Source: a virus. Taken from it: a stretch of 46,691 nucleotides of DNA. Location: IMG/VR virus record IMGVR_UViG_3300020202_000024, positions 1-46,691 of that record. One strand, 5' to 3'. A program made the translations under genes and the position numbers. Shown here one piece after another: positions 4,059 through 31,270 of the stretch. The notes below the pieces were generated by a model, which saw only the letters and a list, made by a program, of their open reading frames with translations, was not told the DNA's origin and made no database searches. The first letter of the stretch is position 1; each line of letters begins with the position of its first letter.

Positions 4059-4077
4059 TCGGCAACACACGACTGAG

Positions 4078-4862: not shown

Positions 4863-4885
4863 TCGGCACTCTGATCTGCATTTAG

Positions 4886-4916
4886 GGGCGGGCCTTCGGG
4901 CTCGCCCTTTTCATTT
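4886..4916 (+). terminator. Rho-independent terminator
   Basis: GGGCGGGCC-TTCG-GGGCTCGCCC stem (one G-U pair) with a TTCG tetraloop, then TTTTCATTT. Confidence 0.75.
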
Positions 4917-4927
4917 GGAGAGCCGAC

Positions 4928-5320: not shown

Positions 5321-5322
5321 CC

Positions 5323-8222: not shown

Positions 8223-8230
8223 GGGTGCTG

Positions 8231-8258
8231 ACCGTAACGTGTATTCCCGCACCGTCAA
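8231..8258 (-). promoter_or_regulatory. Putative promoter of the 8001..8222 gene (leaderless)
   Basis: Minus strand reads TTGACG-16 nt-TACGGT-8 nt-ATG. Confidence 0.4.
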
Positions 8259-8273
8259 GACCAGAGGTCCGTA

Positions 8274-9218: not shown

Positions 9219-10621
9219 TGCTGGTCCAATTCGCGACGCAGAGCTACCGGGCGGCGTCCCTCCCGGTAAGCGCGCAACGCTGTGTGAATTTCTTCGCGGA
9301 GCGCCAGCCGCCCGATGCGAAAACGCCGGTCGCCCTCTATGGCTGCCCCGGCCTCGTGACGACCATCACGATCGGAACTGGTCCGATCCGCGGTATGCAC
9401 GTCATGGGAGGGGTCCTGTACGTGGTGTCGGGCGGGCGCCTCTACAGCGTGACCAGCACGTGGGCGGCCACCGACATTGGCGGCAATATCTCGGGGACCG
9501 GCGTTGTCTCAATGGACGACAACGGGTCCCAACTGATGATCGTCAACGGGGCAAACGGCTACCTCTACAGCACATCGCTTGGCTTCATCCTAATCACGGA
9601 CGCGGACTTCAATGCAGCCGAGACGGTGACGTTCTTCGACCAGCGATTTGTATTCGATGAGAAGGGCACGAACAGGTTTTTCATCTCGGCATCTCTGGAT
9701 GGAACCAGCTATGACGCCGCACAGGTGTCCTCGGCCGAGGCGCGGCCGGATAATGTCGTTGCGGTGGTCCTGAACCAGCAGGTGCTGTACGTCTTCGGCA
9801 CGAGATCGACCGAGACATGGCAGGATGTGGGTGCGGCGAACTTTCCCTTCGAGCGTGTGCCTGGCGGTGTCATAGAGCGCGGCCTTGCCGCTGCCCACTG
9901 TACTGCGAAGGAAGACAACACGATCTTTTTCCTTGGGGACGATCGGGTCTTCTATCGGATGGACGGTTTGACGCCCAAGCGGGTGAGCACTCATGCGATT
10001 GAGGGCGCTTGGCGAGATTACGGCACCGTCTCAGACGCTTTTGCGTTCGCCCACTCATTCGGCGGCCACAAGTTTGTGACGGTCACATTCCCGACCGAGA
10101 ATGCGACCTGGGTCTATGACATCTCGACGGGGCTCTGGCACGAGCGGGAGTCGTGGGACGAGAACGACACGTCGCTCGGCCGCTGGCGCGGGAATGCCCG
10201 CGTTGACGCCTACGGGTATGAGCTGATCGGCGATGCCTTCAGCGGCCGGATCGGCTATCTTGATCGTCATACCTACACCGAATTCGGCAACACGATCCGT
10301 AGCTCGGCCATCTCGCCTCCGGTCCATTCCGACCGTCAGCGGGTGTTCAACTCTCGTTTTGAGATGGACATCGAGGCAGGCGTCGGCCTCACGACAGGGC
10401 AGGGCTCAGATCCCCAGATCATGATGCGCTACTCGGACGATGGTGGCCTCACATGGTCTCGTGAGATGTGGCGCAGCATGGGGGCCATTGGCAAATACAA
10501 GACGCGCTGTCGATGGCTGCGCCTCGGACAGGCGCGCCAACGGGTCTATGAAATCGCGATCAGCGACCCGGTGAAGCGGACGATTATTGCGGCGCACGTC
10601 GATCTTGAGCCTGGCCAATGA
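9218..10621 (+). CDS. Tail hub/nozzle protein, P22 gp10 (phage stabilisation protein)-like
   Basis: 467 aa. The pattern PGL..G..RG...GVLYVVSGGRLY...G.G.VSM and the C-terminal YSDDGG.TWS...W..LG...R..E matches my memory of the P22 gp10 layout and size (472 aa). Confidence 0.65.
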   Translation: MLVQFATQSYRAASLPVSAQRCVNFFAERQPPDAKTPVALYGCPGLVTTITIGTGPIRGMHVMGGVLYVVSGGRLYSVTSTWAATDIGGNISGTGVVSMDDNGSQLMIVNGANGYLYSTSLGFILITDADFNAAETVTFFDQRFVFDEKGTNRFFISASLDGTSYDAAQVSSAEARPDNVVAVVLNQQVLYVFGTRSTETWQDVGAANFPFERVPGGVIERGLAAAHCTAKEDNTIFFLGDDRVFYRMDGLTPKRVSTHAIEGAWRDYGTVSDAFAFAHSFGGHKFVTVTFPTENATWVYDISTGLWHERESWDENDTSLGRWRGNARVDAYGYELIGDAFSGRIGYLDRHTYTEFGNTIRSSAISPPVHSDRQRVFNSRFEMDIEAGVGLTTGQGSDPQIMMRYSDDGGLTWSREMWRSMGAIGKYKTRCRWLRLGQARQRVYEIAISDPVKRTIIAAHVDLEPGQ

Positions 10622-11058
10622 GTATCGACTCCGATGCGGTCGGCACACCGATCCCGGCCGCGGTGGCGGTGTTCCCGTTCACCGATGAAGCCGGGAAGCT
10701 GACATCCCACGGCTGGGAAGTGCTCAACGCCTGGCACAAGCAGCACGTCGGCATGGGGCGGATCTTCCCGTGCGATGCAAGTGGAACAAACACGATCACG
10801 CTGACGCCAGTCAACGACCAGATGCTGCTCGCGCAATACAGCGTCTATGACGTGTTCATTTTCCGGGCCGCGAATACGTCAACAGGGGCAGTGACGGCGA
10901 CTGTTGTGCCCAAGAGCGGCACGCTTACGACAATCAAGGTCTATGTGGACGATGGCGCCAATCAAGCCACGACCGGAGATGTGGTGGCCGACTGCGTCTA
11001 CATGGCGATCTATGCGCCGCATCTCGACGCAGCGGCCGGCGGGTTTGTCCTGAAATGA
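10618..11058 (+). CDS. Hypothetical virion protein (needle/plug position)
   Basis: 146 aa; ATGA overlaps on both sides. Confidence 0.6.
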   Translation: MSIDSDAVGTPIPAAVAVFPFTDEAGKLTSHGWEVLNAWHKQHVGMGRIFPCDASGTNTITLTPVNDQMLLAQYSVYDVFIFRAANTSTGAVTATVVPKSGTLTTIKVYVDDGANQATTGDVVADCVYMAIYAPHLDAAAGGFVLK

Positions 11059-11519
11059 ACGCTGAGATCCGAGAGGCCGGGCTGATCGACATGCCCGCCC
11101 TGCTCAGGATGGGACGCGCATTCTTCAAGCAAGCAAGCTTGGATACGCTCACGACATGGGACGACGCCTCGTTCGAGGCCACAGCGCAAATGCTGATCTT
11201 AAGTGAGCCAGGTGTCCTGCTCGTTGCGGAGGCTGACGGGCATGGCGTTGGGATGGCGGGCGCCCTCGTATTCCCGGCCTACTTCAACGTGAAGGTCCAC
11301 GTAGGTCAGGAGCTGTTCTGGTTCGTCGCGCCAGAACACAGGTTCGGCGTCGGCGCGGCGCTTATCGGCCGTCTTGAGGAAGAAGCACGAAGCAGGGGCG
11401 CATCCCTGTTCATCGCTGGCGCTGTCGCCGGCCTGCGGGACGCGGCGATTGCGCGGCTCTACGCACGGCGCGGCTACCGGCCCTCCGAAAATTCATTCAT
11501 CAAGGCTCTTGCATCATGA
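11055..11519 (+). CDS. GNAT-family N-acetyltransferase
   Basis: 154 aa. The acetyl-CoA motif R-F-G-V-G-A-A-L is followed by ARSRGA, and the C-terminal YARRGY is typical of GNAT. Confidence 0.7.
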   Translation: MNAEIREAGLIDMPALLRMGRAFFKQASLDTLTTWDDASFEATAQMLILSEPGVLLVAEADGHGVGMAGALVFPAYFNVKVHVGQELFWFVAPEHRFGVGAALIGRLEEEARSRGASLFIAGAVAGLRDAAIARLYARRGYRPSENSFIKALAS

Positions 11520-12244
11520 TCTCAACTGGAACGGCCATGCTGGGCGCCGCGGCGCTGTCAACTGGCGGCGGTATCGCGTCGGGTTTGATGGGATCGCGCG
11601 CGGCCAAGAGCGCGGGCGATCAGCAAGCGCGCGCGGCTGCCGAGGCCCTCGGCTGGCAGAAGAAGGTCTACGGCGACACCGAAGGCATGCTCGCCCCGTT
11701 CATCGGGACCGGGCAGAACGCCTTCCGCAGCATCGGCGACCTATATGGCCTTAACGGCAAGCCGGCGTCCATGGATGGCTTCACGGCATCGCCGGACTAT
11801 CAATTCCGCATGCGCGAGGGCATGGGCGCGCTGGAGAACTCTGCGGCGGCACGTGGCGGTCTGTTGTCCGGCAACTTCGGTCGCTCTGCCATCCAGTTCG
11901 GGCAAGGTCTCGCTTCGACGGAGTTCGGGAATTACTTCGACCGCCTGTTCCGCACGTCGCAGCTCGGCGCGAATGCGGCGTCGTCGCTGGGAAGCATCGG
12001 GGCCGGGTCGGCGGCGAGCATGGGCAACACCATCATGGCGCAAGGACAGGCGGGCGCCGCCGGTACGGTCGGCTCGGCCAACGCCATCAGTGGCGGCATC
12101 AACTCGGCCGCGAACAACCTGACGTTCCTGGCCGGCATGAACCGCTCCTCTTACGGACCGAACGCGAGCAGCGGGTATCTGCCCGGCGGGTCAAACTTCT
12201 CCATCCCGAACGTCCCGCAGGGGACTGGCATCTGGCCGGCGTGA
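11516..12244 (+). CDS. Ejection/internal virion protein A
   Basis: 242 aa, Gly/Ala/Ser-rich. First of three consecutive genes in the ejection-protein position. Confidence 0.6.
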   Translation: MISTGTAMLGAAALSTGGGIASGLMGSRAAKSAGDQQARAAAEALGWQKKVYGDTEGMLAPFIGTGQNAFRSIGDLYGLNGKPASMDGFTASPDYQFRMREGMGALENSAAARGGLLSGNFGRSAIQFGQGLASTEFGNYFDRLFRTSQLGANAASSLGSIGAGSAASMGNTIMAQGQAGAAGTVGSANAISGGINSAANNLTFLAGMNRSSYGPNASSGYLPGGSNFSIPNVPQGTGIWPA

Positions 12245-13344
12245 CGCACATGGTAGACAACTCCATCGCTCTTGGCGTGAAGCCGCCGTCGTTCGACATT
12301 TCCGCCCCGCTCGTGCGGGCCGCGCAAATGCGGGAGATGCAGGTCCAGGCGCAGGCCGCTGAGGTCAAGATGCGCCAGGAGGCGCTCGGCGCCGAGGCGC
12401 GCGGCCTGATGCAGTTCGCGAACCATCCTGAATTTGCCCAGCGGTGGGCGCAGTCCGTGGACAAGCTAGCGGCGCAGGGTGTTCTCGACCCGCAGACCGC
12501 GGAGAACTATCGCCGCACGCCGTCGCCACTGCTGCTGAAGCAAATCATCGCGTCCACGGAGTCGCCGTCAATCGCGTTCCAGCGGGAAGAAGCGCAGCGG
12601 TCGCAGGCGAATGCGGATCGGTCGTTCGGCCTTCAGCAGCAGCAGTTCGCGCTCAATGAGCGAGCCGCGAATCGCCGCGATGAGCCCGAGCAGGTCCGCA
12701 TCTTGCGGGCAACGGGCGTTGATCCGGCGAGCGCAGAGGGAAAGAAGCTGCTTTTCCCGAAGACGGACACCCCCATCAGCGCCACGGACAAAAAGGCAAT
12801 CTTCTCGGCTGAGGATGACGTGCCCCGGCTTGAGGCCACGATCCAGAACATCCAGCGCGCTAAAGAACTCAATCCCAGCGTCTACTCGGGCGTGGGCGCC
12901 AGTATCCGCGGCACTATGGGCGCCAAGCTGCCGGATATGCTGGTCCCGGACGCCATCGCATCCCCGGAGCGTGGCGCCGCGACCTCTGAGTGGGACCAGC
13001 TCATGGGCGCCGAAGCAATCAAACTGATGGGCGAAACCCTGAAGGGGGCGTCAACCGATTTCGAAATGCGCAAGTTCCTTGGCATCGCAGCAGATACGTC
13101 TCAGCCGCCCAAAGTGCGCGAGAATGCGATGAATCGTTTCGTTGATCTCGCCAACAAGGAACTTGACCTGCGGAAGAAGCGAGCCTCCGGCCTGCGCAGC
13201 GGCGACTACTTCAAGCCTGACGGCGGCCAAGGCGTAGCCGCGCCTGAAGGCGCGATTAAGATGCTCAAGGCCGACCCATCCCTCCGCGAGCAGTTCGACG
13301 CGAAGTACGGCGCTGGCTCTGCCGCCAAGGTGCTGGGCAAGTAA
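12241..13344 (+). CDS. Ejection/internal virion protein B
   Basis: 367 aa, Gln/Ala/Arg-rich and helical. GTG start overlaps the upstream stop (alternative ATG at 12250). Confidence 0.6.
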   Translation: MTHMVDNSIALGVKPPSFDISAPLVRAAQMREMQVQAQAAEVKMRQEALGAEARGLMQFANHPEFAQRWAQSVDKLAAQGVLDPQTAENYRRTPSPLLLKQIIASTESPSIAFQREEAQRSQANADRSFGLQQQQFALNERAANRRDEPEQVRILRATGVDPASAEGKKLLFPKTDTPISATDKKAIFSAEDDVPRLEATIQNIQRAKELNPSVYSGVGASIRGTMGAKLPDMLVPDAIASPERGAATSEWDQLMGAEAIKLMGETLKGASTDFEMRKFLGIAADTSQPPKVRENAMNRFVDLANKELDLRKKRASGLRSGDYFKPDGGQGVAAPEGAIKMLKADPSLREQFDAKYGAGSAAKVLGK

Positions 13345-16338
13345 ATGGCGAACGTCTTCGACCAATTCGACGGCAGGGCGCCGGACGGCCGGCCGCGGAT
13401 CGAAATCCGCCCGGCTGCCAAGGGCCTGGACCTGGACCCGCGCTCGCGTGACCTCGTGGTACGGACTATTCTGGGCGAGGCTGGCGGGGAGGGAGATGAT
13501 GGGCAGGCCGGCGTTGCCGCGGTCATCGCCAACCGGCTGCGCTCAGGCAAGTTCGGCAAGTCCGCTGCGGATGTGGTGCTGGCGCCCAATCAGTTCGAGC
13601 CATGGTCCCGGCTGGATGCTCGCCAGCGCATGCTCGGCTACTCGCCGGACAGTCCCGAATACAAGCGCGCGAATGCGGCGCTGGAGCGCGTTCTGGCTGG
13701 CGACGATCCGACCGGCGGGGCCACGCACTTTTTTGCGCCGGCCGCACAGGCTGCGCTTGGTCGTGAAGCGCCGAAATGGGCGACGGGTGAACCCACCGTG
13801 ATCGGCCGCCACAACTTCTATGCCCCGGACGGCAAGCCGAAGGCGGCGCAGGCGATTGATCGTTCTCGGCCGATCATCAACAACTCGGATGGCTCGTTCT
13901 CAACCGAGCGAACTATCACGGTTGGATTCGACGACGGATACTACAACATCCCCACCATAGTGGACGGCAAACAGGTCTCCGAGAGCGAGGCGATCCAGCA
14001 CTTTAAGGCGGGCCGAAACAAGGCTGTCGGACACTTTGCGACGCAGCAGGAGGCGGAAGCCGCCGCTAAAGCCCGCTCCGGTGAGATTGGCCGTGTACGA
14101 GGGGCGGAAGCGCAGTCTGGACGCAACCCGTTCGACCAGTTCGACGCCCCGGCCGCTCGGCCGCAGGAAGCCGCCTCATTCAATAGTCGTTTCGCGCCCA
14201 ATCCCGTCGAGGCGCTGATCGCCCCGGAGATGAGTGGCATCCCGTCGAACGCGGCGACCCTCGCTCCGGCCATGCGGCGCGCGGCGGATGAAAGACTTGT
14301 GTCGGCTGCAGGCGAAACGCCGGGCGGCACGTTCGCCAGTAGCGCCATGAACACGATGTTGTTGAACATCCCGCGCAATATCTCGGCGGGCCTTGCGGCG
14401 GCAACCACTGACATTCCGTTCTCCGAAGCCTATCAGGGCCTCAAGGACATTGATGAGGCGTCGGCTCGGCTCAACCCGAAGTCCGCGATTGCGGGTACTG
14501 TGGCAGGCGTTGTCGGCGGCGCTGTTGCGCTTCCGGGCCTGGGTGGCGCCGCGACTACAGCAGGCCGCATGGGCCAAGCCGCTGTCACGGGCGCCGGATA
14601 TGCAGCCGCTAGCGAACTGCTCGACAGCAAGGACCCGGTCAAGGCCGCAGTGGCAGCCGGGTTCGGTGCTGCGCTCGGTGCCGTGGCGGCCCCGATCGCC
14701 GAGAAGGTCGTCAACGTCGTCACCAGCTTCGTGAAGCGCGGCAAGACCGATGTCCGCTTTCTGAACAACGATGGTACGCTGACCCAGGAGGCGGTTGACG
14801 CTGCGAAGGCGGCGGGCATTGATCCTGCGGACTTCCATGCCGTTCTTTCGCGCGCCTATGCATCCAAATTTGCGGACCGAGGTGCCTCGCCGAGCACGGC
14901 TCGAGACGCGGCAGCGGGCGAGTTCGGGATCAAGCTTTCGCCCGGCCAATCGACCGGCGATTTCACCCGAACCAAGTACGAGCGCGACGCGGCCGGTGGG
15001 CTGTACGGCCCATTCGCGACAAAGGCGGCTCGCGGGTTCTTTGACGAGCAGACGGGGCAGGTTCAAGCGGCCCGCGGCGGAGTGCAGGACGAACTTGCCG
15101 GCGGCAGCCGTGTGGTGGAGTCCGTGGACGAGGCGGCGCAGGTCGTTCGCGAGGGCATTAAGCGGAAGGCGGGCGAGGCGCGGGCAGACTTTAAGGGCAA
15201 GTATGAGCGCGCATTCGACCAAGAGGGCGAGTTCAGCGACATCGCATTCCGCGGCGTCGGCGACCGCATCGGCCGCGCGCTGTCCGACTCCCCGAACCCG
15301 GTCATCATTGACGATGTGACCACACCAATCGCGGCCCGCGCGATCCGTGACCTGGACAACATCTCCAATCTCAAGATCCAGAACCTTGCAGACCCTTCTG
15401 GAGCGCCCGACCCGTCCAAGATCGTGGCGGTCAACCTGCGCGGCGTCGAGCAGGCCCGCAAGCGCCTAGTGTCATTCTACACTGCAGCCAAGTCCAAAGG
15501 CGACGCTTCGGACATTCGGGCGACGCAGCGTGTCATTGACGCCTTTGACGACGAGATCGAGCAGGCAATCACCACTGGCCTGTTCACCGGCTCCGACGAT
15601 GCTCTAAAGGCGATCAAGGAAGCCCGGATGGCCTACCGGGACTATCGCCGCACGTTCACCCCCCAAGGTCGGGGTGATGATGTGGGGCAGGGCCTGCAGA
15701 AGATTATCGAGCGCGACGCTACGGCTGGCGAGGTCGCCAACTATCTCTATGGCGCCAGCCAAGTCGGCGAGAAGGGCGTGTCGTCCCGCATGGCGGTGCG
15801 GCTCAAGCAGGTCTTCGGCGAGGGCTCCGAGGAATGGTCCGCCGTCAAGCAGGGCCTGTGGATGCGCCTAACGTCCAAGCCAGAGGGCATGACCGATTTC
15901 GGCCCGCAAGCCATGTCCGAACGGATATTCAAGTTCCTGCATGGCCCCGGAGCGGACACGGCCCGCGCGATCTTCGGAAAGGAAGAACTGGCGAAAATGG
16001 GCCGGCTTGCGGTTGCCATGAAAAACGTCGTCCCGCCGAAGGATGCTGTGAATTGGTCAGGGACGGCGTACACGATGGCGGCGCTCCAGGGCGGCGGGCT
16101 GGGCGGGACAGCACTGTGGTTCGGCTCTGATCCGGCGACCGCCGCGTCACTTGCAGCGTTGCGCGTCGGGGGCAAGTTCGGGCGGGACGTGCTCCGTGGC
16201 CGGTCTGCCAGCAAGCACTTCGCCAGCGGGCCTCCCTCAACGGTACAGCAGCCCGGCGGGGCCTATACGGGCTCGACCGGCGTAGCCGGCGGGCTCAGCG
16301 GTAAGGAGGCGGAGGAGGCAACTTACCCGTCTCGCTGA
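13345..16338 (+). CDS. Ejection/internal virion protein C with N-terminal SleB/CwlJ-type cell-wall hydrolase domain
   Basis: 997 aa. RTILGEAGGEG..GQAGVAAVIANRL..GKFG.S...VV..PNQFEPW matches the Hydrolase_2 (SleB) signature. The rest is Ala/Gly-rich with hydrophobic stretches. Confidence 0.7.
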   Translation: MANVFDQFDGRAPDGRPRIEIRPAAKGLDLDPRSRDLVVRTILGEAGGEGDDGQAGVAAVIANRLRSGKFGKSAADVVLAPNQFEPWSRLDARQRMLGYSPDSPEYKRANAALERVLAGDDPTGGATHFFAPAAQAALGREAPKWATGEPTVIGRHNFYAPDGKPKAAQAIDRSRPIINNSDGSFSTERTITVGFDDGYYNIPTIVDGKQVSESEAIQHFKAGRNKAVGHFATQQEAEAAAKARSGEIGRVRGAEAQSGRNPFDQFDAPAARPQEAASFNSRFAPNPVEALIAPEMSGIPSNAATLAPAMRRAADERLVSAAGETPGGTFASSAMNTMLLNIPRNISAGLAAATTDIPFSEAYQGLKDIDEASARLNPKSAIAGTVAGVVGGAVALPGLGGAATTAGRMGQAAVTGAGYAAASELLDSKDPVKAAVAAGFGAALGAVAAPIAEKVVNVVTSFVKRGKTDVRFLNNDGTLTQEAVDAAKAAGIDPADFHAVLSRAYASKFADRGASPSTARDAAAGEFGIKLSPGQSTGDFTRTKYERDAAGGLYGPFATKAARGFFDEQTGQVQAARGGVQDELAGGSRVVESVDEAAQVVREGIKRKAGEARADFKGKYERAFDQEGEFSDIAFRGVGDRIGRALSDSPNPVIIDDVTTPIAARAIRDLDNISNLKIQNLADPSGAPDPSKIVAVNLRGVEQARKRLVSFYTAAKSKGDASDIRATQRVIDAFDDEIEQAITTGLFTGSDDALKAIKEARMAYRDYRRTFTPQGRGDDVGQGLQKIIERDATAGEVANYLYGASQVGEKGVSSRMAVRLKQVFGEGSEEWSAVKQGLWMRLTSKPEGMTDFGPQAMSERIFKFLHGPGADTARAIFGKEELAKMGRLAVAMKNVVPPKDAVNWSGTAYTMAALQGGGLGGTALWFGSDPATAASLAALRVGGKFGRDVLRGRSASKHFASGPPSTVQQPGGAYTGSTGVAGGLSGKEAEEATYPSR

Positions 16339-16654
16339 AGTGGCGAGCTGGGTGATCATCCCAATCGCGCATCCAATATCCGTAGCGGATGCGGGTGCGG
16401 ATCATGGGCCACCAGACCAGACACTGAACTATGACAAGTTCAATCAGGCTGCGGATCGGCCAATGCGCGCGCGCCTGCGCTCTCATTAACACGTCGGCTG
16501 GACATCGGTAACTGGGGTCGCAGTCCATGAGGGTCAGGGCAGCCCTGGCTGCCGATCCGATCTCTACCACTAAGTAAATCGACCAAAGCATAACCCCGGC
16601 CCACAAGAGAACCTCCAGGGCCAGGCTGAGACGATCACGAGGGGCGCGCGGCAT
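16295..16654 (-). CDS. 2-TM membrane protein, counter-oriented moron
   Basis: 119 aa from ATG 16654 (track ORF extends to 16699). Hydrophobic helices LALEVLLWAGVMLWSIYLVV and LIELVIVQCLVWWPMI. It is the only ORF of 60 aa or more in the 400-bp gap before fibre 2. Confidence 0.5.
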   Translation of the reverse strand: MPRAPRDRLSLALEVLLWAGVMLWSIYLVVEIGSAARAALTLMDCDPSYRCPADVLMRAQARAHWPIRSLIELVIVQCLVWWPMIRTRIRYGYWMRDWDDHPARHFSETGKLPPPPPYR

Positions 16655-16660
16655 CGCCGC

Positions 16661-16690
16661 AATGTAGTGCCCCGACCCAGGAACATTCAA
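16661..16690 (-). promoter_or_regulatory. Putative promoter of the 16295..16654 gene (leaderless)
   Basis: Minus strand reads TTGAAT-18 nt-TACATT-6 nt-ATG. Confidence 0.4.
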
Positions 16691-16700
16691 GGACCCCAAG

Positions 16701-16721
16701 GCCGCCCCAGGGCGGCTTTTT
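16701..16721 (+). terminator. Rho-independent terminator
   Basis: GCCGCC-CCAG-GGCGGC hairpin followed by TTTTT; lies 20 nt upstream of fibre gene 2. Confidence 0.6.
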
Positions 16722-16740
16722 GCGTTGGAGATCTCCTATA

Positions 16741-18150
16741 ATGGCCGGACAGTTTACTAACCCGTTCCCGCAATTCTTCAATTCGACGCCGACCGTCTAT
16801 GCGTCGGGAAATCTGTATTTCTACGTCTCCGGCACCTCCACGCCGCTGGACACCTATTCGGACGAGGATCTGTCCGTCGCCAATGCCAATCCGGTCCCGC
16901 TCAACTCGGCAGGCCGCCCGGCCACGCAAATCTTCCTCCAGGACGCGGATTACAAAGTTGTCTTGAAGGACAGCGCCGGCACCACGATCTGGACCGCCGA
17001 CCCGGTACGGGCTCGTGACTCGGCGCTCGTGATCGCGACCAAGACCGGCTCCGGCTCGCCGTCCGGTGTTGTCGCGGGCACCGCTGGCTCTGCTGGCGTG
17101 CTCCCCACGATGTACTGGGACTACACCAACGAGATTCTTTACGTCTGCACGCTCACGGGCTCGGCCGCTACCGCGGAGTGGACGGCTATCAACGCCTCCG
17201 CAGCGACTCAAACATTTTCCGCGCCGCAGGGCCGGCTGACGCTCACCAGCGCCACGCCTGTTCTCGTCTCCGATGCGACATCCGCCACTGCGGTCTACTA
17301 TACGCCGTTCGTGGGCAACCTGGTGCCGATCTACAACGGCACGTCAATGGTGCCAACCACGTTCTCGGAACTCACGCTGACGCTCGCCTCTCAGCATGTG
17401 CTGAGCACGATCTATGACGTGTTCGTGTTCTCGAATTCCGGAGTGGTGACGCTGGCAACCGGCCCAGCGTGGTCTGTGTCGACGGCTGGCTCTGGCGCGC
17501 GCGGGACCGGGTCGGGCACGACGCAGTTGGCGCGCGTCGGCGGCCTTTGGACGAATGCGGTTCAGATCGCCGGGCGGAACGGGGCGACCACGTACACGAT
17601 CGGCGCGAACCTGGCGACATATCTCGGGTCGATCTTCATCGACGGGTCCGCCGGCCAAGTCACTTGCCACACGGCATTCGGGCAGAGCCGGAAATGGGGC
17701 GTGTGGAATGCCCACAATCGCGTTCCTGTCATTCTTAAGGCGGGCGATGCCACGGCCTCGTGGAGCTACAACACCGGCACCATCCGCGCAGCAAACGGCG
17801 CCGCCGCCAATAGCCTGACCATTTTCAGCGGTCTTCCGGAAGAGGTCTATCAAATCGATCGCTTCCAGACCGTGGAGAACGGCACCACTGGCAGCAACAC
17901 GGGCGAGGCGACCGCCGGCATCGGAGTCAACTCGACGACGGCCTACTCGGGGTTCGTTGGCGCTGGCCTCATTTCCGTGAGCGGCATTTCTGGCATTGTT
18001 TTCACCTCTACTCTGCACGGCCGTCATGTGGCGCTCCCGTCGATCGGTATCAACACAATCTCGGCGCTAGAGCAGGGTTCAGCGTCTGGCACTGACACAT
18101 GGCGCGGCGGTGAGGAAGATTGCCTCCTGACCGCGATGTGGCGCGCCTAA
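16741..18150 (+). CDS. Tail fibre/tailspike 2
   Basis: 469 aa from ATG 16741 (GGAG at 16727). The N-terminus F...G.LYFYVSGTSTPLDTYSDEDL...NP.PLNSAGR...IFL.DADYKVVLKD..G..IW is a common phage fibre head-binding domain. Confidence 0.7.
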   Translation: MAGQFTNPFPQFFNSTPTVYASGNLYFYVSGTSTPLDTYSDEDLSVANANPVPLNSAGRPATQIFLQDADYKVVLKDSAGTTIWTADPVRARDSALVIATKTGSGSPSGVVAGTAGSAGVLPTMYWDYTNEILYVCTLTGSAATAEWTAINASAATQTFSAPQGRLTLTSATPVLVSDATSATAVYYTPFVGNLVPIYNGTSMVPTTFSELTLTLASQHVLSTIYDVFVFSNSGVVTLATGPAWSVSTAGSGARGTGSGTTQLARVGGLWTNAVQIAGRNGATTYTIGANLATYLGSIFIDGSAGQVTCHTAFGQSRKWGVWNAHNRVPVILKAGDATASWSYNTGTIRAANGAAANSLTIFSGLPEEVYQIDRFQTVENGTTGSNTGEATAGIGVNSTTAYSGFVGAGLISVSGISGIVFTSTLHGRHVALPSIGINTISALEQGSASGTDTWRGGEEDCLLTAMWRA

Positions 18151-18775: not shown

Positions 18776-18934
18776 ATGAAGGACTGGCTCAAGGCAATCC
18801 CCGGCGCGGTCTATGACCAGTCGGTGGAGGTGATCGCGCGCTATCCGCGTGCGGCGTTCTGGGTGATCGCGATCCCGCTCGGCTACTACGTTCTCAAAGG
18901 CGCGTTCATTGTCATTAAGTGGGCGGTGCTCTGA
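18776..18934 (+). CDS. Small membrane protein, holin candidate
   Basis: 52 aa (below the track cutoff). GGAGG RBS; one TM (AAFWVIAIPLGYYVLKGAFIVI). Its stop overlaps the endolysin ATG. Confidence 0.5.
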   Translation: MKDWLKAIPGAVYDQSVEVIARYPRAAFWVIAIPLGYYVLKGAFIVIKWAVL

Positions 18935-19623
18935 TGGCTGACCCTCGTTGGCTGGCCGAGGCCCGCACGTTCATCGGCACACGGGAAGCGCCTGGCCGCA
19001 AGCACGAGTCGAAGATCCTCCACTGGTGGAAGCTCATCCGCGCCCCGTTCACGGATGACGAAACGCCGTGGTGCGCCGGCTTCGTCGGCGGCATGCTGGA
19101 GATGGTCGGCATCAAGTCGTCCCGGTCAGCCGCAGCTCGCTCCTATCTCAAATGGGGCGCGAAGATCGATCGTCCAGTGCTCGGGTGCATCGTCGTATTT
19201 GAGCGCGGCCCGCGCAACGGGCATGTCGGTTTCTATGTCGGCAAGGACAGCCGCGGGAATCTCCGCATCCTGGGCGGCAACCAGGGTGATGCGGTCAATA
19301 TTAAGTCGTTCGATCCTGCACGGGTGCTTGGGTATCGGTGGCCCGTTGGAGAGCCCTTTCCCGTCGGGAAGCCTGTCCCGGTTGAGGACACGGACGAGCC
19401 TGTTTCGCGTCGCGAGTCGTTCGCCGATCTTCCTCCTGACGCTGAAGAGGTAGATGACGCCACGCCGTCCACACTGGTCGGGCAGATCAAGCAGTGGATG
19501 AACGGCATCGGTACGACGGCTGCGGCCATCTTCTCCAGCATGTTCGACTGGCGTATCGCCGCGCTGGTGGTCGCGGCCGGCCTGATCGTGTTCCTCGTCA
19601 TTTGGTTCTCAAAGAGGCGCTGA
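18934..19623 (+). CDS. Endolysin, CHAP/NlpC-P60-like (TIGR02594-type), with C-terminal TM anchor
   Basis: 229 aa. G..E..G...N..I..W...PWCAGFVG...ARSYLKWG...P..GCIVVF.R....GHVGFYVG......LGGNQGD.V. The C-terminus is IAALVVAAGLIVFLVIWF. Confidence 0.7.
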   Translation: MADPRWLAEARTFIGTREAPGRKHESKILHWWKLIRAPFTDDETPWCAGFVGGMLEMVGIKSSRSAAARSYLKWGAKIDRPVLGCIVVFERGPRNGHVGFYVGKDSRGNLRILGGNQGDAVNIKSFDPARVLGYRWPVGEPFPVGKPVPVEDTDEPVSRRESFADLPPDAEEVDDATPSTLVGQIKQWMNGIGTTAAAIFSSMFDWRIAALVVAAGLIVFLVIWFSKRR

Positions 19624-19994
19624 TGGACATCCTGTTCACCGGCATCGCTTGGGCCAAATGGCTGGCGGCTTGGGTTGCGTGGCTCGGTATCGGCCTTGTG
19701 CCGCTTGCCGTCGCCGCTGCGGTCATGTGGGCATTCCCTCCACTTCGGAAGTGGGCACTTCTGGCCGGCATCGGCTGGGGGCTCTGGTTCTTTGGCTACA
19801 CACTCGGAGACACCAATGGGGCTGCACGGATCACCAAAGAGTGGAGGGCAGCCGAGCAGCGCGCCATCCAGCGAGGGGCGGATGCCCGCGAACGGGCCGA
19901 GCGTGAGATCGAGCGCGAAGATAGCGGCGGTAGCAATGGCGTGCCTCGTGCTGGCAGGGTGCCAAACGACATCTACGACCGTGACAACCCGTGA
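19623..19994 (+). CDS. i-spanin candidate (could alternatively be a holin)
   Basis: 123 aa. N-terminal hydrophobic helices, then a charged coiled region (KEWRAAEQRAIQRGADARERAEREIERE). Its 3' end overlaps the lipoprotein gene. Confidence 0.55.
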   Translation: MDILFTGIAWAKWLAAWVAWLGIGLVPLAVAAAVMWAFPPLRKWALLAGIGWGLWFFGYTLGDTNGAARITKEWRAAEQRAIQRGADARERAEREIEREDSGGSNGVPRAGRVPNDIYDRDNP

Positions 19995-20112
19995 GGCCCA
20001 GTGCAAACCGTGGCGGGCGATCACCTATTCGTCGTCCAAGGACACCAAGCAAACCGTTCAGCAGATCCGCGTGCATAACCGCACCGGCCAGCACTTGAAG
20101 TGCTGGAGGTGA
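19882..20112 (+). CDS. o-spanin (outer-membrane lipoprotein), overlapping the i-spanin
   Basis: Lipobox LVLAGC preceded by RSSAKIAAVAMA. The mature ~50-aa peptide has extra Cys residues. Starts inside and ends beyond the i-spanin gene in the +1 frame. Alternative start at 19936. Confidence 0.65.
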   Translation: MPANGPSVRSSAKIAAVAMACLVLAGCQTTSTTVTTREAQCKPWRAITYSSSKDTKQTVQQIRVHNRTGQHLKCWR

Positions 20113-20114
20113 GG

Positions 20115-20375
20115 ATGAGCCACGAAGAGATGCGCGAGGTGGCAGAAGCCGCCGCCGATGCCGCGGTTGCCCGTGCCTTCATGCTTCTCGGCTTCGACGC
20201 TTCGGATGCCAAGGAAGTCCGGGAAATGCAGGCCGATTTCCTGCATCTCCGCAATTGGCGCAAGAGCACCGAGGCGGTCAAGCGTAAGGCGCTATTGACA
20301 GCCGTTGGCGTCATAGTGACCGGCGCAATTGGGTATCTGCTCGTAGCGTTCAAGTGGCCGACCGGAGGCCACTAA
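20115..20375 (+). CDS. Small protein with C-terminal TM helix
   Basis: 86 aa; GGAGGTGAGG RBS; LLTAVGVIVTGAIGYLLVAF near the C-terminus. Confidence 0.6.
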   Translation: MSHEEMREVAEAAADAAVARAFMLLGFDASDAKEVREMQADFLHLRNWRKSTEAVKRKALLTAVGVIVTGAIGYLLVAFKWPTGGH

Positions 20376-21593
20376 GTGGCGCAAGCCCCGCTCTCCGACG
20401 AGCTTGCCCAGGAGGCGCTCGACGCCTTCCGCGAGCACGGCGCTAAGGACATAGCGGCCCGCGCGCTCAACCTCCCGCCCAAGACCTTCCGCCATCGGCT
20501 GAAGATTGCCGAGGAAAGGGGGATGCACCTGTCCATCCGCGCCCGGACGGAGGTCCACGACGCGGCTGGCAATCTCCAGCGCACATACACCCAGCTCAAG
20601 CAAGAGCCCGGCGACCGCTTCGAGCCCCCGGAGGGGTTCGCGGTCCAGCGGATCGCCACCTACACCGGCCCTGACGGCCGGATCGTCGGACAGTGGCAGA
20701 CCGCCACCCGCGACGCGGAAGACACCCTGGCGGCCCTGCGGACGGTCGTAGACGAGCTAAAGCAGGATCTGCCGCGCGTCGCCCCCACGAAGGGGCCAGA
20801 GCACACCAACGCCCTGCTGCTCAACCAATACACCATCACTGACCTCCATATGGGCATGCTGGCCTGGGGGGAGGAGACCCGCGGCGACCCCTACGATTTG
20901 CAGATTGCCGAACGGCTTCTGACGGACTGGTTCTCTGCGGCCATCGCCATGGCGCCGGATGCCAAGGTCGGGCTGCTCGCACAGCTCGGCGACCTCCTGC
21001 ACCACGACTCCCACGAAAGCGTCACGCCGGCCCACCGGAATGTCCTGGACGCCGACAGCCGTCTCCAGAAGGTGATCCGCGTGGTGATCCGGGTGTGGCG
21101 CCGCATCGTCGCCATGCTGCTCGAGAAGCACGAACGAGTGCATCTAATTATGGAGGCGGGCAACCACGATCCCGCCTCAAGCGCCTGGCTCCGCGAATTG
21201 CTGTTCGCCATCTACGAGGACGAGCCCCGGGTGACGGTGGACAACAGTCCCAGCCTCTATCACGCCTACGAATGGGGCAAGACGGCGCTGTTCTATCACC
21301 ACGGCGACAAGCGGAAGGTGAAGAACGTCGATCATGTCTTTGCCGGCATGTTCCGCGAGATATTCGGCCGAGCCTCGTACAGCTATGGGCACGTTGGGCA
21401 CCTCCACAGCGATGAAGTGGTCGAGACGAACCTGATGCGCGTGGAGCGGCACCGGACCCTTGCGCCTGCCGATGCCTATGCTGCCGGCGGCGGCTGGCTG
21501 TCGAAGCGCGACGCCAAGGTCATTACGTACTCGCAGCAATTCGGCGAGGTCTCCCGCATAACCCTGTCACCAGCGATGGTCAGCACACAATGA
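20376..21593 (+). CDS. HTH-like N-terminal domain fused to a calcineurin-type metallophosphoesterase
   Basis: 405 aa. Ordered MPP motifs: ITDLHMG, LGDLLHHD, AGNHD, YHHGD, GHVGHLH. The N-terminal LNLPPKTFRHRLKIAEERG resembles an HTH. Confidence 0.7.
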   Translation: MAQAPLSDELAQEALDAFREHGAKDIAARALNLPPKTFRHRLKIAEERGMHLSIRARTEVHDAAGNLQRTYTQLKQEPGDRFEPPEGFAVQRIATYTGPDGRIVGQWQTATRDAEDTLAALRTVVDELKQDLPRVAPTKGPEHTNALLLNQYTITDLHMGMLAWGEETRGDPYDLQIAERLLTDWFSAAIAMAPDAKVGLLAQLGDLLHHDSHESVTPAHRNVLDADSRLQKVIRVVIRVWRRIVAMLLEKHERVHLIMEAGNHDPASSAWLRELLFAIYEDEPRVTVDNSPSLYHAYEWGKTALFYHHGDKRKVKNVDHVFAGMFREIFGRASYSYGHVGHLHSDEVVETNLMRVERHRTLAPADAYAAGGGWLSKRDAKVITYSQQFGEVSRITLSPAMVSTQ

Positions 21594-22069
21594 CGACATG
21601 CGCGTATAAGGACGGCATACTTGCAACGGACTCGTGCTGGACTTTCGGAGATACGCAAACCACATCACTTATTAAGGTGCGGCGGCTCGCCAGTGGCGCG
21701 CTTCTCGGTGGAGCGGGGGACAATGACGATCGGTCGGTCGTCACCCTGCTCGACAAGGTGAAAACGTTTGAGAAGTTGCCCAGCAAGGCTGACCTAGCCG
21801 CTACTCGTTGTTGCTTTGTGGGGCTGCTCGTTCTTCCCCGTGGAAAGGTCGTGATGATCGATATCGAGCCCATTGAAGGCTATACTCATTTCGATGCACA
21901 GGTTTGGGAAGCAAACCGGGGAATTGCTGCGATTGGAAGCGGATCGCGCTATGCGCTCGGCGCCATGGCGGCAGGCAAGAGCGCCAAGGATGCTGTCGCG
22001 ATCGCCTGCCGCTTCGACATCAATTCGCGTCCGCCAGTCCACACGATGGCCCTTCAGCCCAAGCGATGA
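21590..22069 (+). CDS. Stand-alone HslV/proteasome-beta-type Ntn-hydrolase peptidase
   Basis: 159 aa. The MTT N-terminus would expose a Thr nucleophile. IKVRRL, GGAGD and GSGSRYALGAMAAG parallel the HslV motifs. ATGA overlap with the upstream gene. Confidence 0.65.
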   Translation: MTTCAYKDGILATDSCWTFGDTQTTSLIKVRRLASGALLGGAGDNDDRSVVTLLDKVKTFEKLPSKADLAATRCCFVGLLVLPRGKVVMIDIEPIEGYTHFDAQVWEANRGIAAIGSGSRYALGAMAAGKSAKDAVAIACRFDINSRPPVHTMALQPKR

Positions 22070-22299
22070 ACCAAGAACGAATCTTCCGCTACGTGCCGGT
22101 GTCGAAGGCGATGGACCATTGCCTTATGGGCTGGATGCCAACCAATGCCTTTGAAGACTGCCGCCACGGCGAATTCTCGGTCCTCATGGAGTACCGCTGC
22201 GTATGTCGGGACACGTCCTCGTCAAGCTTCGGTCGATCGTCTACAACGACCGCTTTGAACTCGCCATTACCGACAGAAGCACTGGCGAATGCCGGGTGA
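22066..22299 (+). CDS. Small hypothetical protein
   Basis: 77 aa; ATGA overlap. The N-terminal 46 aa look genuine (RYVP...GW......HGEFSVLMEYRCVC). The tail after ~22203 has poor third-position GC and overlaps the next gene. Confidence 0.45.
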   Translation: MNQERIFRYVPVSKAMDHCLMGWMPTNAFEDCRHGEFSVLMEYRCVCRDTSSSSFGRSSTTTALNSPLPTEALANAG

Positions 22300-22472
22300 T
22301 CCCGCTGGATGACGACCAGCTCGCGGTCCTCGGGTGGGAGTTCGCGGACGCCCTGATGCAGCGGCACGCCTACCAGAAGCGGCTATCGCGCCAGCCAGTC
22401 CCGAAAAGCCGGATGCTCGACTACGGGCCGGATCAGCAGCAGCCAGCCGAGCACCAGCAGGCCGCCGAATAG
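22203..22472 (+). CDS. Small hypothetical protein
   Basis: 89 aa with high third-position GC. Last plus-strand gene before the strand switch. Confidence 0.55.
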   Translation: MSGHVLVKLRSIVYNDRFELAITDRSTGECRVIPLDDDQLAVLGWEFADALMQRHAYQKRLSRQPVPKSRMLDYGPDQQQPAEHQQAAE

Positions 22473-22500
22473 TGTGAGCCGCAGCGGCCTATTCAGGTGC

Positions 22501-22740
22501 CTATGTCGCATTCCTAAGTTCCGGCGTGAGCTGTACGGCGAGCCACACAGCGGCATGCGCCGACCCTATTGCCTCATCCCCAGCCGCCGCATTCTTCACC
22601 ACATCGGCCGCGTTGGTCCAGGCGTCTCGTGCCCGGATGTCCTTCGGTAATTCCCGCATCAGCTTCCTGGCGTCGTCCAGTGTCCTGATTTCCACATCCT
22701 GCACCATGACAGGCTTCGGGAACGGGGTACTCCACGGCAT
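22501..22740 (-). CDS. Hypothetical protein
   Basis: 79 aa; last gene of the minus-strand accessory block. Confidence 0.55.
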   Translation of the reverse strand: MPWSTPFPKPVMVQDVEIRTLDDARKLMRELPKDIRARDAWTNAADVVKNAAAGDEAIGSAHAAVWLAVQLTPELRNAT

Positions 22741-22765: not shown

Positions 22766-23143
22766 TCAACGCCCGCCGTCCGTGCCTGTTCCCCGCCTGT
22801 CGATTACGCGCATTTTCTCTGATAAAATCAGCACCTTCTTGGGCGCCTTCCTGTGCTCGGCCTCGAGCAATGCCCGCGCGCCGTCCAGACCAGCGGCACG
22901 GCCAAGGATCTCGACCGGCTTCCCCCTCGTCACATCAGCCGCGCTCCATTCCGCGATCTCATATCGCAAGTCCTCCGGCGTCATCTCCGGCCGCAGCCGA
23001 ACGTCGTCAACGCTCGGCGGCTCGCTCAGGCTCACCCGCATGGATAGCCGGAACACCTCACCCAGCATCCCGCCAGGCGTGCTGCGCAGCCATTGAACGG
23101 CGGCTTCCTTGAGGCGGGCGAGGGGGTGGGTGGGTTCCGTCAT
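22766..23143 (-). CDS. Hypothetical protein
   Basis: 125 aa with good codon bias. Confidence 0.6.
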   Translation of the reverse strand: MTEPTHPLARLKEAAVQWLRSTPGGMLGEVFRLSMRVSLSEPPSVDDVRLRPEMTPEDLRYEIAEWSAADVTRGKPVEILGRAAGLDGARALLEAEHRKAPKKVLILSEKMRVIDRRGTGTDGGR

Positions 23144-29043: not shown

Positions 29044-29119
29044 GGGCGGTTAGCTCAGCCGGTAGAGCGCGTCCTTTACACGGACGATGTCGGCGGTTCG
29101 ATCCCGTCACCGCCCACCA
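29044..29119 (+). tRNA. tRNA-Val(UAC): tRNA-Val (anticodon UAC), complete, encoded CCA; probable attP core
   Basis: Hand-folded cloverleaf: acceptor GGGCGGT/ACCGCCC, D-arm GCTC/GAGC, anticodon stem CGTCC/GGACG with loop TTTACAC, T-arm GGCGG/CCGTC with TTCGATC, then A-CCA. Confidence 0.85.
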
Positions 29120-29304: not shown

Positions 29305-30321
29305 TCACACCTCCGCTGCGTCCTTCTGCCAGTCCGGGTGATGGTGCCCGTAAGTCCGCTCCAGCATCCGCACGGACATCCCGAGCGCGCCGGCCGCCTG
29401 CCACAAGTCCACCCGATCGTGCATCATCCACGTCGCCCTGGTGTGCCGTAGGGTGTGGGGCGTTACTGCATCGTCCAGCCCGGCAGCCTTGCGCGCCGTG
29501 ACCCAGGACCGCCGCAGCTTCGTCACCGGCCGCCCATCGTAGTGAACCACCCGCTTCGCCTTGGGGTGCGCCTGCTCGTCCAGCCGGCGCCACCGCCGAA
29601 GGTGCGCCAGGATGCGCGAGCCGAGCCGCACGCGCGGCGTCCGCTTCGTCTTGGACTCGGCCTTGCCCGGCGCCCGGCGCCGCATCGTGCCGCTGTGCAG
29701 GTCCACCCAGGACCATTCCAGCCCCAGCAGGACACCCGACCTCGAGCCCGTGTAGAGGCCGAGCAGGATGAACCGGGCGAGGTGCGGCGTGCGCCTGGCG
29801 GTCCGTAGGAGCTTCGCGGCCTCGGATCTGGTCAGCCATCGCTCGCGACCTTCAGCCTTGTCCGGGAGAACCACGGTCGGCACGACGGGGAGGGGGTGCT
29901 TGTGCGCGTGCCAGTACCGGACGGCAGCCCGGAGGGTTTCAAGGTCTCGGCGAGCCGCCGAAGCCGGTCGGTCAAGCGCATACGCGCGACAAGTCGGGCC
30001 AGCGATTTCAGAGACACGCTTGCCCGACCACCACCGGAGAAGATTGCCGATCGTGTGAGCGACGTTCTCGGGGCGGGCTGTGTGCGGGCCATGTTCCTCA
30101 CCGTAGACGTTCAGGACATCGTCGATGAGCGGCGCGGGGCTGGGCTCCGGCCGGTGCTTGCGGGCGAGGTACGTTTGGAGAGCTGCTTCAGCTTCTCCAC
30201 GGTCAGATTCGCCGCAGCCCGTGCGGATGAACGCTGCTCCATCTCGGATGACCCATTGGCCTCTGCGGCTATCGAGCCAAAGCCGCGGCGGCGCCCTTCT
30301 TCTCGGCATTTGTTGATCCAT
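29305..30321 (-). CDS. int: Tyrosine recombinase (phage integrase)
   Basis: 338 aa. N-terminal RLWLD...WVIRDG...IRTGCG..DR.EAE.AL. C-terminal HTLRHTRATW...LGMSVRMLERTYGHH (R..H-x-x-R..Y). Alternative start at 30309. Confidence 0.85.
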   Translation of the reverse strand: MDQQMPRRRAPPRLWLDSRRGQWVIRDGAAFIRTGCGESDRGEAEAALQTYLARKHRPEPSPAPLIDDVLNVYGEEHGPHTARPENVAHTIGNLLRWWSGKRVSEIAGPTCRAYALDRPASAARRDLETLRAAVRYWHAHKHPLPVVPTVVLPDKAEGRERWLTRSEAAKLLRTARRTPHLARFILLGLYTGSRSGVLLGLEWSWVDLHSGTMRRRAPGKAESKTKRTPRVRLGSRILAHLRRWRRLDEQAHPKAKRVVHYDGRPVTKLRRSWVTARKAAGLDDAVTPHTLRHTRATWMMHDRVDLWQAAGALGMSVRMLERTYGHHHPDWQKDAAEV

Positions 30322-30479
30322 TCAGCCATGTCGGCGGGCGTCGTGTAATAGCGGCGCCCGATTGGGAAGATCAGGAGCATACCGCGATCGGCGGCGGAAC
30401 GCAGGGTCGAGACCGTCAGCCGAGCGGCTGGGAACAGCTCGCATGCGTGCTTAAGGGTGATCGGCTCGTCAGCGTTCAC
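30111..30479 (-). CDS. Excisionase/MerR-like HTH DNA-binding protein
   Basis: The N-terminal 55 aa (ITLKHACELF...LTVSTLRSAADRG.L.IFPIGRRYYTTPADMAEWI) fit an Xis-type HTH. The ORF then runs 211 nt into int in another frame, so the true end is uncertain. Confidence 0.5.
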   Translation of the reverse strand: MNADEPITLKHACELFPAARLTVSTLRSAADRGMLLIFPIGRRYYTTPADMAEWINKCREEGRRRGFGSIAAEANGSSEMEQRSSARAAANLTVEKLKQLSKRTSPASTGRSPAPRRSSTMS

Positions 30480-30511
30480 GGTTTTCTAGACCTCGGTTTG
30501 GTGAGCAGAAG

Positions 30512-31264
30512 TCACTGAGACACATCCAGGAGCCCGAGCTGCTTAGGCGGTCGAGGCTTCTCGATGAACAAATCTTGCTGCCGCAAGGCTGCAGCGACCC
30601 GCTTGCATGCCAAATCGAAGTAGTTTGGCTCTAGCTCAATGCCGACGAAGCGCCGCCCCAGTTGGACAGCAGCCATGCCCGTTGTCCCCGAGCCCATGAA
30701 GGGATCTAGGACGGTTTCGCCGGGGGTAGACGCCAGCGCGATCGCCCATTTCATCCAAGACAATGGCTTTGGACATGGGTGTCCGGTTTTTTCGGCTGTT
30801 TCCGTAGACTCGATCGCAGTGTGTTTGGCGCCCATGTGAAGGTTCGGCGCGCGACCGTACAGCAGCGCGTGAACGAAGCTGCTAAAGCCCCATGTGTTGC
30901 GTCCGCAAGCGGCTGGCAGATATACGCCGCCCATGGCTGTCGGCGCCGGTAGATGCCAGATCGCAGGCGGAACCCCGAAGACAAGCCCACGGCCGTCTTT
31001 TGTCAGGCTCAGGGCCATCTCAATGGCCGGGACCACGACGGCGCGGTAATTCTCCGGCGTGTCGGAATAGCTCGCATAGCCATCCTTCACGAGGACGCGG
31101 TCGGTTCTGCGGTCCTTGGACGCCAAATGAGTGCCGAGATTTACGCCGTATGGCGGGTCGGTAATCAGCAGATCCACGTCATTCAACGTCGGCATTACGT
31201 CCCGACAATCGCCCAGATAGAGCGACACGCCATCAGCAATATGTTCGACTCTGTTCATGCTCAT
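30512..31264 (-). CDS. Beta-class N6A/N4C DNA methyltransferase (orphan)
   Basis: DPPY (ITDPPYGV) precedes the SAM motif DPFMGSGTTG, which is the beta-group order as in CcrM. ATG at 31264 (track TTG at 31270). No nuclease partner. Confidence 0.8.
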   Translation of the reverse strand: MSMNRVEHIADGVSLYLGDCRDVMPTLNDVDLLITDPPYGVNLGTHLASKDRRTDRVLVKDGYASYSDTPENYRAVVVPAIEMALSLTKDGRGLVFGVPPAIWHLPAPTAMGGVYLPAACGRNTWGFSSFVHALLYGRAPNLHMGAKHTAIESTETAEKTGHPCPKPLSWMKWAIALASTPGETVLDPFMGSGTTGMAAVQLGRRFVGIELEPNYFDLACKRVAAALRQQDLFIEKPRPPKQLGLLDVSQ

Positions 31265-31270
31265 TGACAA

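Follow-up and report, generated by a model that had tools for sequence, protein, structure and literature searches.

We analysed a stretch of viral DNA of 46,691 nt (the window: IMGVR_UViG_3300020202_000024, positions 1-46,691, to which all coordinates refer), in which four rightward genes behind the lysis genes form a cassette at 20376-22472. Gene 1 encodes a helix-turn-helix (HTH) metallophosphoesterase, gene 2 a compact homologue of proteasome-type peptidases, and genes 3 and 4 two small proteins. It turned out that both enzymes belong to catalogued, experimentally uncharacterised phage families and that the locus is not a new system. The reading that we prefer, and hold with moderate confidence, takes genes 1-4 as independent accessory genes in a variable late-operon island and not as an obligate system. 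The four genes are:

20376-21593, + strand: gene 1, 405 aa, GTG start
21590-22069, + strand: gene 2, 159 aa
22066-22299, + strand: gene 3, 77 aa
22203-22472, + strand: gene 4, 89 aa

An original prediction, made from the sequence of the window, had described four coupled open reading frames (ORFs), with a GTG start 1 nt after the upstream stop and ATGA overlaps at 21590 and 22066, and the sequence agrees. Read directly, the GTG of gene 1 at 20376 abuts the TAA of the upstream ORF, which ends at 20375, the ATGA overlaps lie at 21590-21593 (gene 1/2 junction) and 22066-22069 (gene 2/3 junction), and genes 3 and 4 overlap by 97 nt in different frames. Because the lysis block lies upstream and convergent genes lie downstream, genes 1-4 form the distal end of the rightward late operon, where they face minus-strand genes. 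The scan for promoters and terminators around the cassette gave nothing above shuffled expectation.

The variable slot downstream of gene 1

The near-identical relative L257 contains the same operon end with another, short segment where gene 2 would stand. By blastn, L257 145-1366 aligns with window 20364-21584 (gene 1) at 87.5% DNA identity, and L257 1568-1935 aligns with window 22064-22431 (genes 3-4) at 84%. Between these two blocks, where the window has 21585-22063, L257 holds a stretch of about 200 nt that is unrelated and includes a short, cysteine-rich ORF, and the breakpoints lie at most 6 nt from the start and stop of gene 2. Since the edges of 21585-22063 coincide with the ends of gene 2, the segment is a swapped gene cassette. 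The G+C content at third codon positions (GC3) is 0.63 in gene 2, 0.84 in gene 1 and 0.83 in gene 4, and the overall GC content of gene 2 is 57.7%. Judged from the sequence, gene 2 is a recently exchanged cassette, and the gene pair in the window arose by gene swap. Such near-identical phages with and without the gene-2 cassette provide a clean natural experiment.

To describe the surroundings of gene 1 more widely, we collected loci with close gene-1 relatives (51-63% identity). Of these 86 loci, the window included, only the window itself contained gene 2 (1 of 86). As the relatives of gene 1 nearly all do without gene 2, gene 1 clearly works without it. These relatives also stand directly behind the lysis genes, and the genes that follow them change from locus to locus, mostly being of nucleotide-metabolism types. 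The slot 3' of gene 1 is filled with a nucleoside-deoxyribosyltransferase-like gene in 17 loci, and elsewhere with deoxynucleoside monophosphate (dNMP) kinase, MazG-like, DUF2829-like, NinI-like or Gad2-domain genes, where the MazG-like, DUF2829-like and NinI-like labels come from the annotation of the 16-3 type and from inspection. This variable gene content accords with the accessory slot that had been proposed for the distal end of the late operon. L255, a relative of 43 kb, has a non-orthologous HTH-phosphoesterase (phrog_221, 4164-5126), an endonuclease VII gene and a small ORF between its lysis genes and genes 3/4. A phosphoesterase gene seems to hold the post-lysis place both here and in the window, with a different family in each.

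One of these loci deserves a separate description. In L088, a gene with the Gad2 Pfam domain (6278-7054) lies directly downstream of a gene-1 homologue of 63% identity, and is followed by genes for an acetyltransferase, a dNMP kinase, an AAA_28 protein and ribonucleotide reductase. Gad2 is named after the Gabija anti-defence protein, and the locus hints at an anti-defence and nucleotide-metabolism island.

The two enzymes and their families

Gene 1 had been read as an HTH segment fused to a calcineurin-type phosphoesterase, which is borne out by its five ordered motifs, its PHROG family and its Foldseek fold. By profile match it is a full-length member of phrog_704 ('DNA repair exonuclease'; E 8.8e-120, residues 42-402 against profile positions 23-389 of 390). 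The protein consists of an HTH at about residues 8-47, a low-confidence β-rich linker at about 54-112 and a metallophosphoesterase domain at about 145-405, with the motifs ITDLHMG, LGDLLHHD, AGNHD, YHHGD and VGHLH in this order. The metal-ligand positions D156, H158, D206, N263, H264, H309, H342 and H344 are invariant in 42 homologues. The Pfam model Metallophos gave no match to gene 1 at E <=1, and a sequence search of the PDB returned chance matches only.

The AlphaFold2 (AF2) model of gene 1 has a predicted local distance difference test score (pLDDT) of 77 and comprises an N-terminal three-helix bundle (about 87-92), the poorly predicted β-rich linker and the metallophosphoesterase core. 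Foldseek recognised the αββα sandwich of a calcineurin-like fold, in which Mre11 of M. jannaschii and the exonuclease subunit DP1 of PolD rank first, MJ0936, GpdQ and Rv0805 come close behind, and Vps29 and LpxH are also matched. The scores are modest (E from 4e-5, template modelling (TM) scores 0.3-0.45; for Mre11, the top match, E 4e-5 and TM 0.34-0.43). Mre11/SbcD and DP1, the best structural matches, are two-metal phosphoesterase nucleases, and in DP1 the phosphodiesterase domain is likewise preceded by a β-rich one. Unlike them, however, gene 1 has no polymerase or Rad50/SbcC partner in the phage, and the likeness is confined to TM values of 0.3-0.45 with no detectable sequence similarity. 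Scans with PHROG profiles and for Walker A motifs found no SbcC/Rad50-like ATPase in the genome.

Gene 1 is widespread. With tblastn, 2011 of 50,697 phage records match it, 827 of which cover at least 80% of the query, and the relatives include p044 of Rhizobium phage 16-3 (55% identity), Kagunavirus, T1-like phages and Autographiviridae. The metagenomic clusters that match number more than 2100; the best 120 of them keep the full architecture at 54-94% identity, and over 100 clusters do so at 55-66%. The likeness to cultured-phage proteins of phrog_704 (16-3 p044, Kagunavirus RP180 gp21, the T1-like 'phosphoesterase') extends over the full length, HTH included, with 41-57% identity, and 16-3 p044 also shares the position of gene 1, between structural/lysis genes and the attachment site attP with its integrase gene (attP-int). 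In the literature searched, we found no experimental test of the 'DNA repair exonuclease' annotation of phrog_704. Orthology of gene 1 with T5 A1, which serves in host-DNA degradation, was rejected, as hhalign gave a probability of 2.8% and only the NHD motif aligned.

HTH N-termini occur in four phosphoesterase families (including phrog_704, 7339 and 221), and a ParB-like N-terminus occurs in the phrog_284 member of L015. These recurrent DNA-binding N-termini, together with nucleases as top structural matches, favour a nucleic-acid substrate. In Kagunavirus RP180, the gene-1 homologue is grouped with a polynucleotide kinase and an ATPase, which suggests a role of the gene-1 family in nucleic-acid end processing, and in an Edwardsiella autographivirus the neighbourhood of the homologue includes a dNMP kinase and a Pnkp-type adenylyltransferase. 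The three-gene cassette of Raoultella phage RP180 (L083, 5001-7167) sits inverted inside the tail-gene module. A precedent for a nuclease reading of gene 1 is offered by Gp48 of mycobacteriophage A10ZJ24, a phage metallophosphoesterase with five motifs, which was shown to have phosphodiesterase activity, to damage host DNA and to aid the evasion of defence (PMC12287305). Gp48 differs in its actinophage origin, the sections consulted of that paper mention neither an HTH fusion nor a PPH neighbour, and the two proteins are likened at the superfamily level only.

Gene 2 had been called 'HslV-like', a label which holds for its fold and intact catalytic residues but not for membership in the family. 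It matches phrog_1040 ('peptidase HslV family') with E 8e-28, and stays below the threshold of Pfam Proteasome (10.9 vs 22.4 bits). As a true HslV it was rejected, because it scores 23.0 bits with the NCBIfam model TIGR03692 (cut-off 157.75) and 23.5 bits with NF003964 (cut-off 137), and these equivalog models match at residues of about 103-134 only. A profile built from 46 gene-2 homologues found HslV first in the PDB (E 3e-7), followed by the betaproteobacterial proteasome homologue (BPH) and then by β5 subunits. The AF2 model has a pLDDT of 95.4, and Foldseek matched it to BPH, HslV and 20S β with probability 1.00 and TM scores of 0.64-0.70.

The protein starts with MTT, so that a threonine stands right after the initiator methionine with no propeptide, and contains KVRRL and GSGSRYALGA. 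In the family alignment, T2 is kept in at least 90% of the 46 homologues, D14, K29, G43, G116 and G118 are invariant, and D143 and S146 are almost invariant. Since the residues equal to Thr1, Asp17, Lys33 and Gly47 are conserved, the active site is not degenerate. For gene 1, the structure check that had been proposed likewise found a known fold together with conserved metal-binding residues. The H1/H2 region of the gene-2 model is reduced to two short helices of 7 and 5 residues between strands 38-43 and 76-81. Besides, GAMAAGKS (21956-21979, residues 123-130) fits the Walker A pattern and has the highly conserved family form A[LIM]GAMxAG[KA]; as it falls in a predicted helix (119-127), it is probably not a P-loop.

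Fuchs et al. (2021) described phage-type proteasome homologues (PPH) as proteins of about 140 aa near HslV and BPH, found in tailed phages and prophages, without propeptide and without H2, and assigned no function to them (PMC8665760; published representative WP_042125023.1). Judged by this description, gene 2 matches the group as a PPH-type proteasome/HslV-fold N-terminal nucleophile (Ntn) hydrolase. It is phage-encoded, compact and propeptide-free and misses H2, it stands near HslV and BPH (group I), it has the Thr1/Asp17/Lys33 triad with Gly47 and a reduced H1/H2 region, and its distant relatives have about 137-141 aa. Gene 2 and its close relatives, however, have 155-175 aa vs about 140 aa published. 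AAH keeps all four helices (PMC8665760), and membership of gene 2 in AAH is thus argued against indirectly, by the helix count only. With HslV (ClpQ), gene 2 shares the fold, the Met-Thr-Thr start, the KVRRL-type lysine, the GSG motif and the best PDB profile match, but it is shorter, its H1/H2 is truncated, its identity in structural alignments is 17-24% and its genome contains no HslU. BPH (5ovt, 5ovs) is the top Foldseek match and a stand-alone protein without known unfoldase. It differs from gene 2 in its about 185-200 aa and its long acidic pore loop, and it forms double heptameric rings.

The statement that no HslU is encoded in the genome holds, since both scans on which it rests were negative: canonical Walker A motifs are absent from the coding-like ORFs of at least 80 aa in the whole genome except for the chance match inside gene 2, and PHROG scans of the complete genome found no AAA+ unfoldase among the large ORFs. 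The original prediction had also named no described phage function, defence or counter-defence system built from the pair. Precedents for the two proteins do exist, as gene 1 belongs to phrog_704 (about 2000 phage records) and gene 2 matches the published PPH (PMC8665760). For viral PPH, we found no experimentally assigned role in the literature searched.

PPH neighbours across phages and competing explanations

Genes for PPH are less common than those of the gene-1 family. Relatives of gene 2 are encoded in 185 IMG/VR stretches, in 3 of 50,697 phage records by tblastn and at 3 distant loci in 185,579 species-representative genomes, and BFVD contains many viral proteins of this fold, such as those of Caulobacter phages CcrBL9 and CcrColossus and Vibrio phage VpV262. 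Around gene-2 relatives we sampled 80 loci from IMG/VR and 80 from JGI/ENA metagenome contigs, two collections that overlap, and a few further loci. BLAST alone found gene-1 relatives in 4 of the first 80 PPH loci. This was an undercount because the neighbouring phosphoesterases are too divergent, and it was corrected with an ordered five-motif scan, extended by BLAST, and with PHROG assignment. The adjacency of PPH and phosphoesterase genes across phages is a real association, beyond chance. The phosphoesterase is the commonest neighbour of PPH, with no other family as frequent, and belongs to phrog_704, 284, 7339 or 221 or to one unclassified type. One such neighbour is a 626-aa fusion of a ParB-like part with a phrog_284 metallophosphoesterase, directly upstream of the PPH gene in L015 (5836-7716). 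The general adjacency is a new lead and a starting point for PPH function.

According to the preferred reading of independent accessory genes, gene 1 would encode a two-metal phosphodiesterase that is targeted to DNA and acts on nucleic acid during lytic growth, either in host-DNA breakdown feeding nucleotide salvage or in the processing of DNA ends. Gene 2 would be an active N-terminal-threonine peptidase with no phage-encoded unfoldase. It is a recent arrival in the slot by cassette replacement, and genes 3 and 4 form the conserved end of the operon. Here we infer the substrates, the expression timing and any cooperation of both enzymes. Some results weigh against this reading. In 155 PPH loci there are 28 phosphoesterase ORFs, all of which (28 of 28) are co-directional and within 700 nt of PPH, and none lies farther out in the PPH flanks, compared with 244 near and 1304 far for other ORFs (Fisher p ~1e-22, a value that treats ORFs as independent and an ORF count that includes spurious ones). 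When PPH proteins were collapsed at 90% identity, which cuts double counting and applies no phylogenetic correction, 22 of 106 informative clusters (21%) adjoined a co-directional HTH- or ParB-fused metallophosphoesterase. Most of the junctions are stop-start overlaps or gaps of at most 4 nt, as a functional pair would show. Besides, the Foldseek scores of gene 1 do not split nucleases from small-molecule phosphodiesterases (Rv0805, GpdQ and MJ0936). The breakdown of nucleotide second messengers, one of the roles suggested at first, may also be an activity of gene 1.

The leading competitor is a functional pair: PPH and a DNA-binding phosphoesterase would be a two-gene module for host takeover or counter-defence, in which several phosphoesterase families are interchangeable and an ATPase-independent peptidase works with or on a nuclease or phosphodiesterase. 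In one form of it, PPH might process or activate the phosphoesterase; in another, it might degrade a host factor by which the phosphoesterase is blocked. Such a module is supported by the adjacency itself, which in both collections is strong, consistent in strand and mostly abutting, and also by the spread of the neighbours over at least four PHROG families (704, 284, 7339, 221) and an unclassified type, the share of paired clusters, the top rank of the phosphoesterase among PPH neighbours and the ATGA overlap of genes 1 and 2 in the window. On the other hand, 79% of the PPH clusters are unpaired, with no phosphoesterase within 6-8 kb, the close gene-1 loci contain PPH once in 86, matches in the phage records number 3 for gene 2 and 2011 for gene 1, and L257 has gene 1 without gene 2. 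Moreover, genes of both types tend to be found where modules meet and in accessory islands, close to lysis, terminase and endonuclease VII (EndoVII) genes, and this shared residence could explain part of the adjacency. We consider the module doubtful; if true, it would place a viral proteasome homologue in a functional context for the first time. The co-occurrence of the pair beyond chance, which the original prediction had required, fails on the gene-1 side (1 of 86 loci, and L257) and holds on the PPH side, where phosphoesterases are adjoined beyond chance across phages.

PPH could also be a surrogate HslV that uses the host HslU (ClpY) and thereby redirects or competes for ATP-dependent proteolysis, an idea that is compatible with the other readings and that we rate as improbable. 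Most Proteobacteria carry hslUV, HslV is the best profile match of gene 2 (E 3e-7) and among its best structural matches, the catalytic residues are conserved and the phage encodes no unfoldase. But much of the H1/H2 region of HslV is missing from gene 2, and PPH are described as lacking H2 (PMC8665760), so that ring and HslU-docking surfaces may differ.

A very improbable explanation is anti-phage defence by a prophage, with the cassette expressed from the lysogen as a moron, which had been among the suggested roles. The moron-like position at the operon end beside the strand switch and the atypical composition of gene 2 would fit it, and both enzyme classes are also used in defence systems. 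It is disfavoured because PADLOC-DB 2.0 gave no family at E <=1 for genes 1-4 and five neighbouring ORFs, because no convincing promoter of their own is evident, gene 1 starting right at the upstream stop, and because the gene-1 family is abundant in groups regarded as virulent (T1-like phages, Kagunavirus, Autographiviridae). PPH genes, for their part, often stand among replication, packaging or lysis genes in phage contigs.

The published record says little on the pair. The terms 'phosphoesterase' and 'phosphatase' are absent from the main text of Fuchs et al. (PMC8665760) by term search, and we found nothing relevant on a PPH-phosphoesterase pair, or on their association, in the literature searched. 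Among the annotated cultured-phage homologues of gene 1 that were inspected, none has a PPH neighbour. Aeromonas phage 4_L372X has no PPH-sized gene within 4 kb of its gene-1 homologue, and for the related Aeromonas phage 4L372XY a PPH-like structure is present in BFVD.

The operon end and the phage genome

Scans with Pfam, PHROG, NCBIfam and PADLOC gave no family annotation for genes 3 and 4. For gene 3, 57 representative homologues, mostly of 46-99 aa, match chiefly residues of about 3-50. Its conserved domain thus covers the first 48 residues or so (22066-22209). In both L257 and L255 the reading frame of gene 3 is kept open, and it is conserved as well. The 30 C-terminal codons, a low-complexity tail that runs into gene 4, are probably under no selection of their own. 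Two larger proteins, P0273 (677 aa) and P0240 (803 aa), contain 7-9 tandem copies of the short gene-3 domain. Gene 4 has 10 homologous clusters (63-84% identity) and is also the terminal gene of the rightward operon in L255, L256 and L257.

Beyond gene 4, the ORF 22501-22740 (- strand, 79 aa) has no family match, is absent from L257 and is unsupported, and the ORF 22766-23143 (- strand) has a counterpart called in L257. The segment 22473-22765 has no counterpart in L257, where gene 4 almost abuts the homologue of 22766-23143, and is a second indel beside the gene-2 cassette. At 22459-22502, where the convergent gene blocks meet, a weak inverted repeat may act as a bidirectional terminator; the consensus terminator scan called no terminator there.

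Positions 1-127 of the window are identical to 46565-46691 (assembly overlap), and these identical 127-nt ends show that the phage genome is complete, circular or circularly permuted, and about 46.56 kb long. When its large ORFs were scanned with PHROG, they revealed the gene set of a temperate phage. The features around the cassette and in the rest of the genome, with strand where assigned, are:

1-18150: head, Hc3, DNA-ejection and tail genes (PHROG scan)
18919-19623: CHAP endolysin of the lysis block (family scans)
19675-20112: Rz-like spanin of the lysis block (family scans)
20100-20375, + strand: DUF6127-like ORF of 91 aa with a hydrophobic C-terminal segment (phrog_6420, E 3e-20; DUF6127 match weak), the final gene ahead of genes 1-4
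22459-22502: weak inverted repeat between convergent gene blocks, 14-nt arms, 79% complementary
29305-30321, - strand: integrase (PHROG scan)
35777-36115, - strand: cI-like repressor (PHROG scan)
39596-40459: replication protein (PHROG scan)
41434-42009: Q-like antiterminator (PHROG scan)
42997-44631: large terminase, TerL (PHROG scan)

A complete tRNA-Val gene (anticodon TAC, 29044-29119, + strand) adjoins the integrase gene and may mark the attP region or the integration target, and about 950 nt on the other side of the integrase gene (30322-31270) contain no convincing ORF. Within the structural region, the gene at 13345-16338 encodes a protein of 997 aa with an N-terminal endolysin-like domain (phrog_15649, E 3e-25), which is probably a virion-associated cell-wall hydrolase distinct from the CHAP endolysin of the lysis block.

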